A stretch of 64,000 nucleotides of DNA, taken from sequence record EU863409. One strand, written 5' to 3'. The notes under the pieces are model-generated. The model saw only the letters and a list, made by a program, of their open reading frames with translations, did no database searches and was not told the DNA's origin. This DNA comes from Escherichia phage JS10. Position 1 is the first letter of the stretch. Every line of letters starts with the position of its first letter. A program made the position numbers and the translations under genes. This document shows, in pieces, positions 6,401 to 39,780 of this stretch.

Positions 6401-6663
6401 TGTAGGAATCGAGCTCCTTCTAATGCATCATCAAGATTATCAAACTCATCGACGTAATCAATACCGCCAACTTCATCTTTAGCGTATAGCCAGTACCGTT
6501 TAAATTCATATTCGATAATAAAGTGGTCACCTTCAATCTGGAGAGCCCCATCACCATTAAATTGGACTGCATAACCTGTAAAGCGGACATCATTCAGGAG
6601 TTCTTCTTTCATAGCAATCATTTCCAAGTTTTTATCGTAATTAGAGAGTTTTATTTTAATCAT
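6397..6663 (-). CDS. hypothetical acidic protein
   Basis: 88-aa ORF; ATGA overlaps on both sides. Confidence 0.5.
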   Translation of the reverse strand: MIKIKLSNYDKNLEMIAMKEELLNDVRFTGYAVQFNGDGALQIEGDHFIIEYEFKRYWLYAKDEVGGIDYVDEFDNLDDALEGARFLQ

Positions 6664-8122: not shown

Positions 8123-8180
8123 AATGTTCTCCTCGTGTGTTGATAGGATAGACTATAACACGTGAGGAGAGGAAGTAAAC
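8123..8180 (-). promoter_or_regulatory. PeSL-like promoter-stem-loop cassette (variant)
   Basis: -35 GTTTAC (8175-8180), 17-bp spacer, -10 TATAGT; imperfect inverted repeat whose proximal arm carries GAGGAG SD. Confidence 0.45.
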
Positions 8181-14551: not shown

Positions 14552-15072
14552 GCGAGAACCGTCTTTAAACGCTCTTCAAATTTCTGAAGCAGAGCTTGGC
14601 GTTCAGCTCGTTGTGATTTGTACTGCTCGATACGACCTGAAGTGAGGGCGTACTGTTCGTTTACTGATTCCCGCATGAATTCAGGAATCTCTTTACAAGC
14701 TTTGATTTCGTCAAACTTATCAATAACCGCTTGTTGTTCGGCAATCAAGTTATCAAAATAAGCGATATCTGATTTAACGTTTGCCAGGTCAGATTCGGTA
14801 GGCATTAAACGTTTATTACGCTCAGCTTGATAAGCTTGGTTGGTTTCACGACTCCAGTGAAGAGTACGTTTTTTGTTGGTGTTTTTATAGAGCTCTACAA
14901 TACCAACTGAATCGATGATAGCAATCCAGTTCCAACGGTTTTTGTAAATCTCTCCTCCAGATACGGTAATCTCATTACCACAAGCAACATCATTAAAGAA
15001 CTTGCTTTGTTTTTCAGATTTGAAATTACCATTGTTAAAATTAATCAGTGAAAAAATATCTTTAGCGTTCAT
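14548..15072 (-). CDS. hypothetical protein (174 aa)
   Basis: ORF immediately downstream of canonical PeSL-like cassette. Confidence 0.55.
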   Translation of the reverse strand: MNAKDIFSLINFNNGNFKSEKQSKFFNDVACGNEITVSGGEIYKNRWNWIAIIDSVGIVELYKNTNKKRTLHWSRETNQAYQAERNKRLMPTESDLANVKSDIAYFDNLIAEQQAVIDKFDEIKACKEIPEFMRESVNEQYALTSGRIEQYKSQRAERQALLQKFEERLKTVLA

Positions 15073-15127
15073 GATAACCTCCAGTAGTTGATAGGTCTAT
15101 AGTATCATGTCTAATGGAGATGTAAAC
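15073..15127 (-). promoter_or_regulatory. PeSL-like promoter-stem-loop cassette
   Basis: core TTGATAGGTCTATAGTATCA; -35 GTTTAC; 9-bp inverted repeat arms (one mismatch), proximal arm includes GGAGG SD. Confidence 0.55.
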
Positions 15128-15481: not shown

Positions 15482-16462
15482 TTATTTCAGAAGGGTAACT
15501 TCGGCGATTTCGCTCCAGTCATTTTTATCGGTGGCAATGAAGTCCGCCAGATAAAGAGCTGTACGTAATGATACGTTACGAAGACGAGATACATTGGCCT
15601 TCATCCATGCTAGAGCTTGATAAGTCTCGGCATCAGTCAGACCTCGGTTTTGCATCATATCGGTGGACAGGATAACGTCTTCAACACGAACCATAATCTC
15701 TTCGTTCGAGTGAACTCCGAGGTCTAAGTAAACTGAACGAGATACTAAAGCCTGGAGGTGTGGAGCAAGTTTAGTGCCACGTTCTAATTCACGGTCAATA
15801 TCAACGTTGGTGATGAATACGATGGTGCCTTCATATTCGAATTCTTTATCGATATTTTTATCATCGAGATAAGAACTTGAAGTGCTCCAGCACACCTTAC
15901 GTTTCTCACCGGTATCCAATGCGGCTTTCAGAAGGTTCAGGATATCCATGTCAGAGAATACATCAACATCATCAATAAGAAGAACACTATTAGGGCCGCG
16001 GTTATTCCAAAGTTGCTCGTAAAGACCGATTCCACTAATCTTTCCGTTGATTGATTTATATTCGATAGTTTCATTTTCGTGGGCATTTTGTAATGCTTTA
16101 TCCAAAGAGTATGTTTTACCAATACCTGCGGCACCAGAGATGATAAGGGAACGAATTTTACCATCAATGATTCCGTTAGTCATCATGTTCATTACTTTAA
16201 AACGTTTGTTGATGCGATGTTTCATTTCTTCAGCAGATTCAGTAACCATTGCAGGAGCTTCAGCACCTTCCATTTCAACGTCACATTTGAACACCCATAC
16301 ACCACGTTCAACACCATCAATCTGTACAAATACCTTGCCATCACCGAGGTGAGCTTCAGATTCATGAATTTTATTAGGGAACCAGGTTTTACCTGAACTC
16401 ATGAACGTACCAGAGATTTCATTACCGCGATAGATACCTTTGTTGATTTTGATAGTTAACAT
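15482..16462 (-). CDS. P-loop ATPase (Walker A GAAGIGKT, Walker B LLIDDVD)
   Basis: 326 aa from internal ATG with AAGGAG SD; N-terminal approx 100-aa domain followed by ATPase core. Confidence 0.6.
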   Translation of the reverse strand: MLTIKINKGIYRGNEISGTFMSSGKTWFPNKIHESEAHLGDGKVFVQIDGVERGVWVFKCDVEMEGAEAPAMVTESAEEMKHRINKRFKVMNMMTNGIIDGKIRSLIISGAAGIGKTYSLDKALQNAHENETIEYKSINGKISGIGLYEQLWNNRGPNSVLLIDDVDVFSDMDILNLLKAALDTGEKRKVCWSTSSSYLDDKNIDKEFEYEGTIVFITNVDIDRELERGTKLAPHLQALVSRSVYLDLGVHSNEEIMVRVEDVILSTDMMQNRGLTDAETYQALAWMKANVSRLRNVSLRTALYLADFIATDKNDWSEIAEVTLLK

Positions 16463-16526
16463 TTTATTCTCCTTCACTCAGTAGATTTGATAGGTCTATA
16501 ATAACATGTTTAAAGCAGATGTACAC
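16463..16526 (-). promoter_or_regulatory. PeSL-like cassette (variant, repeat copy 1)
   Basis: GATAGGTCTATAATAACATGTTTAAAGCAGATGTACAC; -35 GTGTAC, -10 TATTAT; palindrome AACATGTT. Confidence 0.5.
16489..16526 (-). repeat. 38-bp direct repeat (copy 1) of PeSL variant core
   Basis: GATAGGTCTATAATAACATGTTTAAAGCAGATGTACAC; second copy at 16801..16838. Confidence 0.7.
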
Positions 16527-19952: not shown

Positions 19953-19984
19953 AAAACGAAAAAAGGTCCCACCGAAGTGGGACC
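19953..19984 (-). terminator. intrinsic terminator
   Basis: GGUCCCAC-UUCG-GUGGGACC hairpin followed by U6CGU4. Confidence 0.65.
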
Positions 19985-19989
19985 TTTGA

Positions 19990-20376: not shown

Positions 20377-20653
20377 CTACCTTCATTAGTTTAGCGTATC
20401 GTTCTCCGATAGCCCGACCTTCAATCGAGCAAGACTCTATTGTATTGCAATTTGAAATTTTCCAAGAAGCAGTTACATAAGCCCAGTAGTCTTCGGAGGC
20501 CTTTACACTAGGTTTACTCATTTGCGCATAAACTGGCATCGCACTACTAGCAAAGGCGTCCATCAATTTAGGGTCGGATTTGTTTGCTAGTGAAGATGTT
20601 GGGCTTAAACATCCAATCATAAGGATACAAGCCACTGTACGGAAAATACCCAT
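20360..20653 (-). CDS. rI: lysis-inhibition regulator RI (antiholin) homolog
   Basis: 97 aa; N-terminal signal-anchor-like segment; C-terminal C-x5-C-x-IEGRAIGERYAKLM resembles T4 RI; TATAAATA late promoter upstream. Confidence 0.6.
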   Translation of the reverse strand: MGIFRTVACILMIGCLSPTSSLANKSDPKLMDAFASSAMPVYAQMSKPSVKASEDYWAYVTASWKISNCNTIESCSIEGRAIGERYAKLMKVDDEIQ

Positions 20654-24015: not shown

Positions 24016-24072
24016 TTTGTAATCTCCTGTAGTTGATAGGTCTATAGTACCACGTCTACAGGAGATGTAAAC
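24016..24072 (-). promoter_or_regulatory. PeSL-like promoter-stem-loop cassette (upstream of regB)
   Basis: -35 GTTTAC, 17-bp spacer, -10 TACTAT; perfect 9-bp arms CTCCTGTAG / CTACAGGAG (24024-24032 / 24056-24064). Confidence 0.6.
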
Positions 24073-25544: not shown

Positions 25545-25844
25545 TTAGAAAGAACCAGAACCTTTAATTGTATTCTGGCGACCTTTATTTTCTAATTCAG
25601 AGTGGTCGATTTCGTATGCTTGGGCTACACCAAAGGCCTTTTTAACTTTAGCTAAAGAGCCTTTAGATGTAACAATATTAAAAGTATTACCTTTAGTAAA
25701 ATCAACCAAATCCACTTGTACGCCCTGTTTACCGAGGCTTGCTACAATAGCATCAACATATTCTTGGTCTAAGGTGCCTTGGACACCTATTTGGAATGCT
25801 TTAGGAGCTTTGGCTTCTGTAATAAATTCTTGATAGGTTTTCAT
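25545..25844 (-). CDS. internal-protein-like capsid-targeted protein
   Basis: N-terminus MKTYQEFITE (capsid targeting sequence with I-x-E protease site); 99 aa. Confidence 0.6.
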   Translation of the reverse strand: MKTYQEFITEAKAPKAFQIGVQGTLDQEYVDAIVASLGKQGVQVDLVDFTKGNTFNIVTSKGSLAKVKKAFGVAQAYEIDHSELENKGRQNTIKGSGSF

Positions 25845-25898
25845 ATTATTCCTTAAGTTGATAGAAGTATTCTATCACGGATTTAATTAAGCGTAAAT
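25845..25898 (-). promoter_or_regulatory. promoter with stem-loop over -10 (PeSL-related)
   Basis: -35 TTTACG, 17-bp spacer, -10 TAGAAT inside hairpin GATAGAA-N3-TTCTATC. Confidence 0.4.
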
Positions 25899-26303: not shown

Positions 26304-26359
26304 TTTTAATCTCCTGTAGTTGATAGGTCTATAGTATCATGCCTACAGGAGAAGTAAAC
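26304..26359 (-). promoter_or_regulatory. PeSL-like promoter-stem-loop cassette (upstream of denV)
   Basis: Same architecture and arms as regB cassette; -35 GTTTAC 26354-26359. Confidence 0.6.
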
Positions 26360-29963: not shown

Positions 29964-30176
29964 TTACTTTTTGTTGAAAAAGTACATTTTACCTTTAGGG
30001 GATAAGGATACACGAAGTGCGTTACCGATACCAACTGAACATTTAACCAGGTCAGCAGATTTCAATTCACCAAATGCTTGACGAAGGTCACCGTCACGAG
30101 TGTTAACCATCAGACATTTAGCACCAGCTGCACGAACTTCATTTAACATGTTGATTGCTTGGTTAGAAAGTTTCAT
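29964..30176 (-). CDS. hypothetical protein (70 aa)
   Basis: Start at ATG with GGAGAATAAA SD directly after PeSL-like cassette. Confidence 0.45.
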   Translation of the reverse strand: MKLSNQAINMLNEVRAAGAKCLMVNTRDGDLRQAFGELKSADLVKCSVGIGNALRVSLSPKGKMYFFNKK

Positions 30177-30242
30177 TTTATTCTCCATTTCACTCTGTTG
30201 TTTTGATAGGTCTATAGTATCACACCTATAGACCTTGTATAC
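30177..30242 (-). promoter_or_regulatory. PeSL-like promoter-stem-loop cassette (type with core-derived stem)
   Basis: -35 GTATAC, -10 TACTAT; perfect 10-bp stem AGGTCTATAG / CTATAGACCT (30208-30217 / 30226-30235). Confidence 0.55.
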
Positions 30243-35132: not shown

Positions 35133-35531
35133 TTATTTCATTTTGGCGAGGCAGATTTCATTGGCTTCCCATTGAGCTTGCTTAATAATAGCTTTGGATA
35201 CAGGAACCTTTTGACCATAAGTTTTTGACGTTGAGAGAACAATATATTTGTTTGCCTCATTATGCCAACCTAGTGATTTTTCACCATGACTACCTTTAAC
35301 CACAGCTGACACCTCAACAGAGCAACCACCATCAGAAATCTTGGTTTCTACAATCCATTCATTTCTCTCGGCAGCTTCAATTTCCGATCTCCTTTTTTCT
35401 TCATACATGGCGGCCCAATCAGTTTTTGCCAAGCTGAAAGTAAGAGCTTTCTCTAATTCTTTGGCAGCTTTTTGTTGTTCAGGCGTTAATGAATTGTACA
35501 ACTCTTGCATTTCTTTATCTTCGATATTCAT
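35133..35531 (-). CDS. hypothetical protein (132 aa)
   Basis: Start at ATG with GTGAAGGAG SD after PeSL-like cassette. Confidence 0.5.
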
Positions 35532-35595
35532 TATGCTCTCCTTCACTCCGTTGTTTTGATAGGTCTATAGTATCATATTCTACGAAAGAGTAAAC
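35532..35595 (-). promoter_or_regulatory. PeSL-like promoter cassette
   Basis: core TTGATAGGTCTATAGTATCA; -35 GTTTAC (35590-35595); hairpin degenerate. Confidence 0.5.
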
Positions 35596-36439: not shown

Positions 36440-36515
36440 TGGTCGAGACAGTAGGGATCGAACCTACGACCTACGGTTTAGAAGACCGTTGCTCTTCCTT
36501 CTGAGCTATGCCTCG
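36440..36515 (-). tRNA. tRNA-Arg (anticodon UCU)
   Basis: 76-nt cloverleaf: anticodon stem ACGGT/ACCGT with loop CTTCTAA, T-arm GTAGG-TTCGATC-CCTAC, encoded CCA; unusual C1-G72 acceptor start. Confidence 0.65.
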
Positions 36516-36519
36516 TATT

Positions 36520-36594
36520 TGGCGGACATGCATGGATTCGAACCATGGACCAATTGATTAACAGTCAACTGCTCTACCACTGAGCTACACATCC
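36520..36594 (-). tRNA. tRNA-Asn (anticodon GUU)
   Basis: 75-nt cloverleaf: D-arm TAGCTCAGTGGTAGAGC, anticodon loop CTGTTAA, T-arm CATGG-TTCGAAT-CCATG, encoded CCA. Confidence 0.75.
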
Positions 36595-36598
36595 AAAT

Positions 36599-36672
36599 TG
36601 GTGGCCCTGGGTGGAATCGAACCACCATCCAGCGATTATGAGTCGCTCGCTTGACCGTCCAGCTACAGGGCC
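36599..36672 (-). tRNA. tRNA-Met/Ile2 (anticodon CAU)
   Basis: 74-nt cloverleaf: acceptor GGCCCTG/CAGGGCC, anticodon stem AGCGA/TCGCT with loop CTCATAA, T-arm GGTGG-TTCGATT-CCACC, encoded CCA. Confidence 0.75.
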
Positions 36673-37837: not shown

Positions 37838-38239
37838 TTAACCCTCGTCTACAATAGTGTGGGTATTGGCATTAACAATCTGCCACCAGCCAAAACGATT
37901 GGAACCGTAAAGAGGTTTATTCTCGTTTTCTTTAATGATATCGCGCAGTTCATCTTCAGAGAAGGCTTTAGCGATTAAATCAGTATACCCACCACGTGGA
38001 TAATAATTATCACCCGCAAACAAAAGGAAATTTACCTTTCCGGAAGGAACATATGCTTCCTTAGGATACTTGTTTCCTGCGTGGTCGACAACTTCAATAT
38101 AACGGTAAGGAATATCAGTTCTTTCAACCCATTGCCATGCTGCTGCAGGGGATTCAAAAGCATCTACACCTAAACGGTTATCTTCATCTTTAGACGGATT
38201 ATTTTCGTAATCCGCATATACATAATATTCAACGTTCAT
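37838..38239 (-). CDS. hypothetical protein
   Basis: 133-aa ORF. Confidence 0.5.
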   Translation of the reverse strand: MNVEYYVYADYENNPSKDEDNRLGVDAFESPAAAWQWVERTDIPYRYIEVVDHAGNKYPKEAYVPSGKVNFLLFAGDNYYPRGGYTDLIAKAFSEDELRDIIKENENKPLYGSNRFGWWQIVNANTHTIVDEG

Positions 38240-38424
38240 TATTCACCTTTAGAGATTTTATCCATAACAAAAGAGATTGAACCAATTAAGAATGCCACTA
38301 CTAAAGAGATTGTATTCTCGGAAGTTGTAAGCAAATCCAACATGAATCCTGCAAACATACTAAAGCCAAAAGCAGTAACGGCGGCCAGTGCAGTAACATT
38401 TCTAATTAATTCACAACGTTTCAT
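38239..38424 (-). CDS. small membrane protein (61 aa)
   Basis: Start at ATG with GGAGAATAAA SD after PeSL-like cassette; two hydrophobic helices. Confidence 0.45.
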   Translation of the reverse strand: MKRCELIRNVTALAAVTAFGFSMFAGFMLDLLTTSENTISLVVAFLIGSISFVMDKISKGE

Positions 38425-38490
38425 TTTATTCTCCAATCACTCATTTGTTTTGATAGGGCTATAGTATCATCACTAAAGCCCGTTGTAAAC
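38425..38490 (-). promoter_or_regulatory. PeSL-like promoter-stem-loop cassette (covarying stem)
   Basis: core GATAGGGCTATAGTATCA with stem GGGCTATAG / CTAAAGCCC; -35 GTTTAC. Confidence 0.55.
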
Positions 38491-38492
38491 AC

Positions 38493-38786
38493 TTATTTTG
38501 TAATTTCTTTGATTTTAGAAACTACTTTATCTTTGGTAAGACCGGAAAAAGTCTTATATTTTGTAAAGTGGATATCATCACCAAGATTAATATAATATTT
38601 CTTTTTAACCGTATTGAATGCTATACTAACAGGTTTACCATTTACTGTAATAGTAATTTGCTGAGCCTTATCAACATCACCTGAGCCAAAGGCTCTTTTA
38701 ATATCGCTACTAATATCGGCCATAGCCGCTTTGTTAATGGAATACAAATCTGTCGATTCTTTGATAAATTCTTGATAAGTTTTCAT
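38493..38786 (-). CDS. internal-protein-like capsid-targeted protein
   Basis: N-terminus MKTYQEFIKE; 97 aa; downstream of canonical PeSL-like cassette. Confidence 0.6.
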   Translation of the reverse strand: MKTYQEFIKESTDLYSINKAAMADISSDIKRAFGSGDVDKAQQITITVNGKPVSIAFNTVKKKYYINLGDDIHFTKYKTFSGLTKDKVVSKIKEITK

Positions 38787-38855
38787 TTTTTTGTTTCCGT
38801 TAGGTTGGGTTTGTTTTGATAGGTCTATAGTATCATGCCTATAGACCTTGTAAAC
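38787..38855 (-). promoter_or_regulatory. PeSL-like promoter-stem-loop cassette
   Basis: -35 GTTTAC (38850-38855), 17-bp spacer, -10 TACTAT; perfect 10-bp stem 38821-38830 / 38839-38848. Confidence 0.6.
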
Positions 38856-38866
38856 ATCTTTTTAAA

Positions 38867-39780
<914 letters not shown>

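Follow-up and report, generated by a model that had tools for sequence, protein, structure and literature searches.

A 64,000-nucleotide stretch of the genome of Escherichia phage JS10 (sequence record EU863409; hereafter, the window) carries intergenic cassettes in which the spacer of a promoter is the reverse complement of its own -10/discriminator segment, so that the two can form a short stem-loop. Three copies of the stem, in cassettes A, B and C (Table 1), are considered here, starting from that at 38425-38490; the cassettes are read on the minus (gene) strand, and coordinates are given on the plus strand. Comparison with related phages strongly supports the view that the pairing itself is maintained by selection, and a one-sided bias among the wobble pairs points to a single sense strand as the molecule that folds, either read-through RNA from the upstream gene or the non-template DNA strand. 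Judged by their sequences, the cassettes contain predicted strong T4-type sigma-70 early promoters, and the stem is the stem-loop part of a PeSL-type (promoter-early stem-loop) cassette, an element of a kind already published, in a JS98-like phage of the T4 type. On balance, and with moderate confidence, we favour an RNA hairpin of the sense strand that marks the boundary at the gene junctions of these PeSL-type cassettes. Four rival explanations were weighed which, in descending likelihood, are a DNA-level hairpin, a non-functional by-product, a canonical terminator and a dyad operator.

Anatomy and stability of the stem

On the gene strand the cassettes follow one order: an A-rich stretch, GTTTACA, a spacer of 13-14 nucleotides (nt), TGATACTAT, AGACCTATCAA, a short leader, a Shine-Dalgarno (SD) sequence of the GGAG type, and ATG. 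Each cassette wholly occupies an intergenic gap of 65-80 nt, and the span from the -35 element to the ATG is 66-69 nt in the three copies with the stem. A consensus promoter scan returned TTTACA-16/17-TACTAT with the TG of a TG-extended -10 at 38854-38827 and 38489-38461. The 21 nt upstream of the three copies are 76-86% A+T, the upstream genes' stop codons (38867, 38493 and 30255) are found 4-13 nt ahead of the -35, and the stem is positioned 12-20 nt past the stop codon.

Both arms of the stem are made of promoter sequence. The 5' arm, AGGTCTATAG, is the spacer directly after the -35, and the 3' arm, CTATAGACCT, comprises the last four bases of the -10 together with the discriminator. Along the plus strand of cassette A the stem reads AGGTCTATAG (38821-38830) and CTATAGACCT (38839-38848), with 10 perfect pairs enclosing an 8-nt loop, and cassette C has the same arms and loop length. 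If transcription begins 7 nt after the -10, the stem would end at -1; the +1 placed in this way (38820 in cassette A) falls just past the 3' arm, and the whole hairpin would thus be located upstream of the cassette's own transcript. A possible promoter on the opposite strand (TTGATA-18-TATAGA, plus strand) was set aside as the mirror image of the palindrome, with no gene in that direction.

The preliminary description of this DNA had reported a perfect 10-bp (base pair) stem in cassettes A and C and, in cassette B, a compensating change that keeps it. All of its sequences and coordinates were found exactly as given: the perfect stems are formed by AGGTCTATAG/CTATAGACCT, and in cassette B a compensating A>C at 38479 accompanies the T>G change at 38458. 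Cassette B does not, however, preserve a 10-bp stem. Its arms, GGGCTATAG (38456-38464) and CTAAAGCCC (38473-38481) on the plus strand, form 8 of 9 pairs (GGGCTtTAG with CTAtAGCCC), and there are two pair-breaking differences that had gone unmentioned, an A.A opposition at 38461/38476 (T.T on the gene strand) and the loss of the tenth, outer pair (C opposite T on the gene strand). In the minimum-energy fold of cassette B, GGGCU/AGCCC is combined with an inner UAGUG/UACUA helix. Because the same arm carries two uncompensated changes, the single compensated pair is in itself weak evidence for the selection on the stem that had been deduced from it.

The predicted RNA folds of the three copies have energies of -17.2, -15.4 and -14.6 kcal/mol, the first two for the 10-bp stems and the last for the interrupted one, with z-scores of -5.4, -3.8 and -2.5 relative to dinucleotide shuffles. 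The 20-nt core occurs 10 times in the window, versus 0.02 expected. Since a general listing of inverted repeats is dominated by long imperfect pairs, perfect hairpins (at least 9 bp, loop of 4-10 nt) were counted instead, giving 13 register counts at 8 distinct sites versus 2.4 +/- 1.7 in Markov simulations; both canonical stems (cassettes A and C) are among them.

Covariation of the two arms

An exact-pattern scan of IMG/VR yielded 83 stretches from about 20 T4-like genomes, which together with the window provide 143 cassettes, 105 of them unique in spacer plus core. Within this set the spacer follows the discriminator. The discriminator GACCT is preceded by AGGTC in 6 of 53 unique cassettes and by AGGGC in none, while GCCCT is preceded by AGGGC in 6 of 18, the lone exception with AGGTC being JS98 itself; ACCCT has AGGGT in 5 of 5 cases, and GTCCT has AGGAC in 2 of 2. 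The off-diagonal cells of the table of discriminators against spacers are almost empty, and the observed count was reached in 0 of 5000 permutations. Among 45 cluster representatives, spacers form a mean of 6.09 pairs with their own core, compared with 4.75 +/- 0.16 after permutation (0 of 2000 permutations as high).

The pairing register of the preliminary description was also scored on 100 unique cassettes of all kinds, aligned without gaps: 51.4% of cells pair, versus 47.5 +/- 0.7 in shuffled alignments and 33-40% when the register is slid by 1-3 columns. The covariation score in the unslid register is 0.140 versus 0.107 +/- 0.008, and the position of the T>G/A>C change is U-A in 29 cassettes and G-C in 16. 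The shuffles ignore relatedness and so overstate significance, a weakness from which the slid-register control and the diversity of the arms are free. In a promoter set defined by generic features (86 clusters), 19 clusters have a helix of at least 7 pairs to their own -10/discriminator, versus 6.4 +/- 2.1 when permuted (maximum 14).

The same kind of helix is formed by at least six arm types of unrelated sequence, which use four or more registers and loops of 4-8 nt. The arm types include GGTC/GACC, GGGC/GCCC, AAGGC/GCCTT, CAGGGTAAT/ATTACCCTG, GATAGGACTA/TAGTCCTATC, GGGTGTATA/TATACACCC and AGAAAG/CTTTCT; the pairings GGGTAAT/ATTACCC and GGACTA/TAGTCC are seen among them. It is this larger set that supports selection for pairing, and in the larger alignment the paired positions covary; independent variation, which the preliminary description had named as the result that would count against it, is seen in a paired base that varies alone in close orthologues of the promoter at 38816 (see below). 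Two looser pattern scans of the viral collection, TGATACTATNNNNNNATCAA and GTTTACA-N13-TGATACTAT, were left unused, the matches listed being mostly chance hits in unrelated contigs.

Hairpins of orthologous promoters

Orthologues of the promoter at 38450, upstream of the trna.4-like gene, were taken from 20 genomes representing at least six phage groups. A hairpin based on the spacer is kept in 19 of the 20, and it is formed from different sequences and in different registers: GGGCT/AGCCC with an inner helix in Dhakavirus; AGGGCTAT/ATAGCCCT, with the register shifted by six columns, in Karamvirus-like phages (near Pet-CM3-4 and KMB19); AGGGTTAT/ATAACCCT, in which one more pair is compensated (C-G to T-A), in Salmonella phage CGG4-1; ATGGGATA/TATCCCAT in VR26-like phages; and GATAGGGTAGTG/TATTACCCTATC in G8-like phages. 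The pair GATAGGGTA/TACCCTATC is also found among these hairpins, and in Serratia CHI14-like phages and others the spacer pairs with the ribosome-binding site instead (ATCTCCATTTG/CAAATGGAGAT). Among orthologues of the promoter at 30203 the -35 varies (TTTACA, TATACA, TGTACA) and the 10-nt arm is invariant.

These comparisons bear on the possibility that the stem has no selected function at all, and that cassette types with accidental palindromes were spread by duplication and recombination while template switching within quasi-palindromes 'corrected' their arms. Such quasi-palindrome-templated mutation is well documented in T4, the cassettes have clearly been copied and recombined, 6 of the 10 pairs come from the self-complementary hexamer CTATAG, and close orthologues carry uncompensated changes. 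A by-product would not be expected, however, to involve six or more unrelated arm sequences in several registers, nor to give the same orthologous promoter different hairpins in at least six phage groups, nor to leave the arm more conserved than the -35 hexamer among orthologues. Template switching, moreover, makes perfect copies, from which the wobble bias described below (11 versus 0) is unexpected. We therefore consider an origin as a by-product rather improbable.

In phage T4, whose GenBank record has no promoter features, early-promoter-like sites were located by pattern in the first 50 kb. Upstream of dmd (about 20583-20611, minus strand), GACAAGACTA/TAGTCTTGTC joins the spacer to the -10/discriminator, and at about 6601-6629 (minus strand) a 13-bp pairing, ATCAGTAGTTGAT/ATCAACTACTGAT, is seen between spacer and leader; both are pattern matches.

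A second cassette class in which the spacer pairs with the Shine-Dalgarno region

In a second class of cassettes (Table 1) the spacer that separates the -35 from the -10 is an anti-SD sequence that pairs with the downstream ribosome-binding region, and the -10 and the start site are in the loop. Examples of the arms are ATCTCCTGTAG/CTACAGGAGAT (11 bp), TCTCCTGTAG/CTACAGGAGA (10 bp) and TCTCCTC/GAGGAGA, and the arms covary across phages (TCTCCATTAG/CTAATGGAGA, TCTCCTCATG/CATGAGGAGA, TTCCTCCAAG/CTTGGAGGAA, ATCTCCATTTG/CAAATGGAGAT). Permutation tests gave 16 clusters with at least 7 pairs versus 4.9 +/- 1.9, and 15 versus 5.6 +/- 2.1. The SD has a predicted accessibility of 0.45-0.80 in the cassette's own transcript and a lower one, 0.20-0.35, in RNA that reads through. 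Karamvirus-like cassettes nest both helices, in the order TCTCC..AGGGCTAT..ATAGCCCT..GGAGA. Taken together, about 38% of promoter clusters have a spacer with complementarity to one of two targets, the discriminator or the downstream ribosome-binding site.

The cassette at 15064-15126 (minus strand) is chimeric. Its spacer, TCTCCATTAGACA, belongs with the leader CTAATGGAGATG in related phages, but both here and in JS98 it precedes CTACTGGAGG, a leader for which other relatives have the perfect partner TCTCCAGTAG. [quoted passage not shown]

Which molecule folds

The strand on which the stems form was addressed with a set of 26 distinct stems, each with 7 or more Watson-Crick pairs and no more than one internal mismatch. 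The internal mismatches comprise 11 of the G.T or T.G kind, none of the A.C or C.A kind and 4 others; when probably homologous sites are collapsed, G.T versus A.C becomes about 7-8 versus 0. A transition in a duplex appears as G.T on one strand and as A.C on the other, and the bias therefore indicates that it is the gene (sense) strand that folds, as a single strand. The preliminary description had left open a DNA or RNA structure or a dyad binding site, and of these the single-stranded RNA (or DNA) structure is favoured by the present data and the sequence-specific dyad is not.

A dyad operator would entail a dimeric, sequence-specific DNA-binding protein of phage or host that represses these early promoters by binding AGGTCTATAG..CTATAGACCT, and a perfect 10-bp dyad over the -10 is indeed in a classic operator position. 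An operator should, however, present the same half-site and spacing at all promoters, whereas arms, loops and registers differ here both within and between genomes: different arms (GGTC/GACC, GGGC/GCCC) coexist in the window, and relatives add unrelated arms, loops of 4-8 nt and shifted registers that no one protein could read. The centres of the half-sites are 18 bp apart, off the helical repeat, and acceptance of G.T but not of A.C would be meaningless for recognition of a duplex. We hold this explanation to be very unlikely, and the least probable of those considered.

Folding at the DNA level is harder to set aside. Here the inverted repeat would form an extruded hairpin or cruciform, or would fold while the DNA is transiently single-stranded, and so modulate or shut off the promoter or serve as a recombination target. 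As the stem holds the -10 and the discriminator, extrusion would necessarily inactivate the promoter; the arms fold as single-stranded DNA (-7.9, -7.9 and -6.4 kcal/mol, z = -3.9 to -5); and, G.T being tolerated in single-stranded DNA, the strand bias fits the non-template strand equally well. Arbiol et al. speculate that the stem is a target for recombination proteins and note that GGGC/GCCC repeats occur at the end points of T4 deletions (PMC2839356), and the chimeric cassette described above is in keeping with such a role. The shut-off of T4 early promoters is moreover still unexplained (PMC2988021). In one version of this explanation, which we regard as distinctly improbable, the spacer folds back onto the -10/discriminator in the single-stranded non-template strand and locks the promoter off; this could happen during open-complex formation, on the passage of polymerases or at the onset of replication or recombination. 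If true, part of the shut-off of T4-type early promoters a few minutes after infection would be intrinsic to the promoter and independent of any factor. Against folding at the DNA level, a stem of 9-10 bp with a loop of 4-8 nt makes a poor cruciform, a symmetric cruciform should not accept G.T while avoiding A.C, and the second cassette class, in which 23-36 nt separate the arms and the partner is the SD, is natural for RNA. We judge a DNA-level structure unlikely overall, while ranking it first among the rivals.

Read-through RNA is the most likely folding molecule. It is preferred because the second cassette class pairs the same spacer position with the SD, a target that is meaningful only in RNA, and because the 23-36 nt between the arms of that class are implausible for DNA extrusion.

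A proposed RNA hairpin at the boundary between small genes

In the reading that we favour, the spacer, as the sole stretch of the promoter that is free to vary, would have evolved as the reverse complement of the -10/discriminator segment that ends at -1. The hairpin would be present solely in RNA that reads through from the upstream gene, and never in the cassette's own transcript, and would in this way mark the boundary between neighbouring small genes on the sense strand. There it could pause or attenuate read-through transcription, or alternatively protect the 3' end of the upstream message and block scanning by nucleases. In either case expression of each shuffled gene cassette would depend mainly on its own promoter, leaving the cassette autonomous.

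Several observations weigh against this boundary hairpin. Read-through transcription is assumed by analogy with T4, and the tolerance of single-stranded DNA for G.T pairs means that the strand bias alone is no proof of RNA. About 14 early promoters are predicted on the minus strand of the window and only 3, about a fifth, carry the stem. In the copy of cassette B an internal mismatch is always present. Among orthologues of the promoter at 38816 the spacer is unchanged while the discriminator base is A in the window (paired), G in the relative L013 (wobble) and C in JS98 (T.C mismatch), and in the relative L084 the spacer has been replaced altogether and the arm is lost; these uncompensated changes in close orthologues indicate that the stem is favoured and not indispensable. 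The stem is followed by ATCAAAAC, with no run of T or U, and a terminator scan made no call on any cassette stem. The three stems leave the predicted SD accessibility unchanged (0.81 versus 0.84, 0.66 versus 0.71 and 0.45 versus 0.47). A role in hiding the ribosome-binding site in read-through RNA was accordingly rejected for these stems, and is seen in silico only in the second class. A literature search gave no usable mapped RNA 3' ends for T4-like phages.

A canonical intrinsic (Rho-independent) terminator of the upstream gene, overlapping the next promoter by chance, would account for the position of the stem shortly after the stop codon. PeSL stems have been named terminators or attenuators, and one RB49 stem acted so in a lacZ assay (PMC2839356). 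The stems here have as few as 3-4 G-C pairs, though, and the gene strand continues after the stem with AUCAAAACAA, which holds no U-run. A textbook terminator is present in the same window, at 19962-19987 (minus strand), where a hairpin of GGTCCCAC cgaa GTGGGACC (19965-19984) is followed by TTTTTT; it is situated just upstream of an early promoter (19948-19921). The presence of this terminator suggests that the phage uses ordinary terminators where they are needed, unlike the U-less promoter stems, and we find a canonical terminator very improbable for the latter.

Genomic context

The coordinates of the cassettes and their parts are collected in Table 1.

Table 1. Stem-bearing and second-class early-promoter cassettes of the window (plus-strand coordinates)
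Feature	Position	Strand	Composition and basis
Cassette A, complete predicted early promoter with stem-loop, upstream of a 97-amino-acid open reading frame (ORF; 38493-38786)	38787-38855	-	A-rich region, TTTACA, 16 nt, TG-extended TACTAT, then AGACCTATCAAAAC
Cassette A, -35 hexamer TTTACA	38849-38854	-	Consensus scan
Cassette A, 5' arm AGGTCTATAG, promoter spacer directly after -35	38839-38848	-	
Cassette A, 3' arm CTATAGACCT	38821-38830	-	-10 TACTAT at 38827-38832 (last four bases) plus discriminator; inferred +1 at 38820
Cassette B, predicted early promoter with interrupted stem, upstream of a 61-amino-acid trna.4-like ORF (38239-38424)	38425-38490	-	
Cassette B, 5' arm GGGCTTTAG, in 14-nt spacer	38473-38481	-	-35 TTTACA at 38484-38489
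Cassette B, 3' arm CTATAGCCC	38456-38464	-	-10 TACTAT at 38461-38466, discriminator AGCCCT; 8 of 9 pairs, T.T mismatch
Cassette C, predicted early promoter with perfect 10-bp stem, upstream of a 70-amino-acid ORF (29964-30176)	30177-30242	-	-35 TATACA at 30236-30241; 5' arm 30226-30235; 3' arm 30208-30217; -10 at 30214-30219
Second-class cassettes	24022-24066, 26310-26352, 8128-8170, 15077-15121	-	Spacer/SD-region pairing

Over its full length the segment 36000-40000 shares 97.9% identity with Escherichia phage JS98 (a Dhakavirus, T4-like myovirus), with more distant matches to hundreds of other T4-like phages. The counterpart region of JS98 contains small early genes, three tRNAs, trna.2-4, 57B, 57A and 1, all on the minus strand. 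The small ORFs upstream and downstream of the cassettes fall in PHROGs families with no assigned function. Three adjacent tRNA genes (36443-36672, minus strand; Arg, Asn and Met according to the JS98 annotation) lie between the studied cassettes, and they are the sole matches to Rfam 15 in the window at the gathering threshold, no family being found at the cassettes.

A conserved leader, ATCAAAACAA(A/C)(A/T)GAGTGA..GGAGAATAAAATG, is common to the cassettes at 30177-30207, 35530-35556, 38425-38455 and 16460-16487 (minus strand); in the anti-SD class the leader is instead ATCAACTAC... As the leader is conserved along with the promoter, the copied unit appears to run from the upstream A-rich region to the ATG. 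Two paralogous small genes that both start MKTYQEF..., at 38493-38786 and about 25800-25897 (minus strand), are annotated in relatives as internal head or virion proteins, and the one at 38493-38786 is left unannotated in JS98. They are found behind different types of cassette, one with the 10-bp stem and the other with the spacer CTTAATTAAATCCG, which pairs with its leader only via CTTAA/TTAAG. A perfect palindrome, AGAATATTCT tcgtc AGAATATTCT (39540-39564), is situated in coding sequence near the 57A/57B junction and is adjoined by overlapping imperfect palindromes at 39529-39580.

Relation to known elements and implications

PeSLs were described in RB49 and phi1 as intergenic cassettes of about 100 bp that consist of an AT-rich region, a sigma-70 promoter, a stem-loop, an SD and an ATG; they number about 50 per genome and mostly precede orphan genes in hyperplastic regions (Arbiol et al. 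2010, PMC2839356). In the same work, one RB49 stem-loop lowered the expression of downstream lacZ, with an effect similar to that of the rrnB T1 terminator, mini-circles were shown to arise when cassettes recombine, and PeSL-like sequences were mentioned for JS98. The family was later extended to T4/PST and KVP40/nt-1, with stem sequences specific to each group (Comeau et al. 2014, PMC4122927). The T4-type early promoter itself combines an A-rich element upstream, a -35 and a TG-extended -10 with further conserved positions (reviewed in PMC2988021).

All the sequence-level features of a PeSL are present in the element studied here. The order of parts is the same, from the AT-rich region and the early promoter of sigma-70 type, through the stem-loop placed between -35 and -10 or overlapping the -10, to the SD and ATG; G-T pairs are drawn in the published stems too; and there are many copies (10 cores in the window), small genes of PHROGs families of no known function, and signs of exchange (15064-15126 and L084). 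The stems differ in sequence, being AGGTCTATAG/CTATAGACCT and variants here, G(n)-loop-C(n) in RB49 and AGNA-loop-TCNT in T4/PST, and here the conserved -10/discriminator core invariably supplies the 3' arm. Only one RB49 stem was shown to act as a terminator, and the stems here have no U-run. From these sequence comparisons the element is a group-specific member of the PeSLs, with an attenuator activity that is putative and assigned by analogy. Neither PMC2839356 nor PMC4122927 contains a covariation or strand-bias analysis or describes an SD-pairing class; published knowledge of PeSLs is extended here by the covariation, the bias of wobble pairs to one strand and the use of the spacer in two classes of cassette.

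The transcripts of T4 e, soc, 49 and I-TevI (reviewed in PMC3014915) offer a further likeness, in that the promoter is located in or beside the 5' arm of a hairpin that is carried by upstream transcripts and not by local ones. Those promoters are late (or middle), however, and the 3' arm is the SD or the AUG, leading to translational repression, whereas the stems of cassettes A, B and C leave the SD untouched. Only the second-class cassettes (24071, 26358 and others) resemble the T4 examples, with an early promoter in place of a late (or middle) one. The CT-rich insulators of sigma-54 promoters (Levy et al., bioRxiv 10.1101/086108) are likewise promoter-embedded sequences that silence read-through by base-pairing, comparable to the anti-SD spacers TCTCC.... 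They belong to a different promoter type and organism, and they pair with the SD and do not form a -10/discriminator stem. Intrinsic terminators and the intercistronic 3'-stabiliser hairpins of the repetitive extragenic palindromic (REP) type share with the present element a stable hairpin a few nt past a stop codon, between co-transcribed genes; the stem here has no U-run, is much shorter than REP stems and is built from promoter sequence.

PeSL cassettes are believed to allow small accessory genes to be shuffled in T4-like phages, each gene with its own promoter and 'terminator'. Until now the case for the importance of the stem came mainly from its recurrence and a single reporter assay, to which the covariation adds comparative evidence that pairing is maintained. 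For annotation, such stems should not be labelled terminators or operators. Promoter spacers are usually regarded as free sequence; here the spacer bears a second layer of information, and in phage engineering swaps of spacers or leaders will break the pairings.

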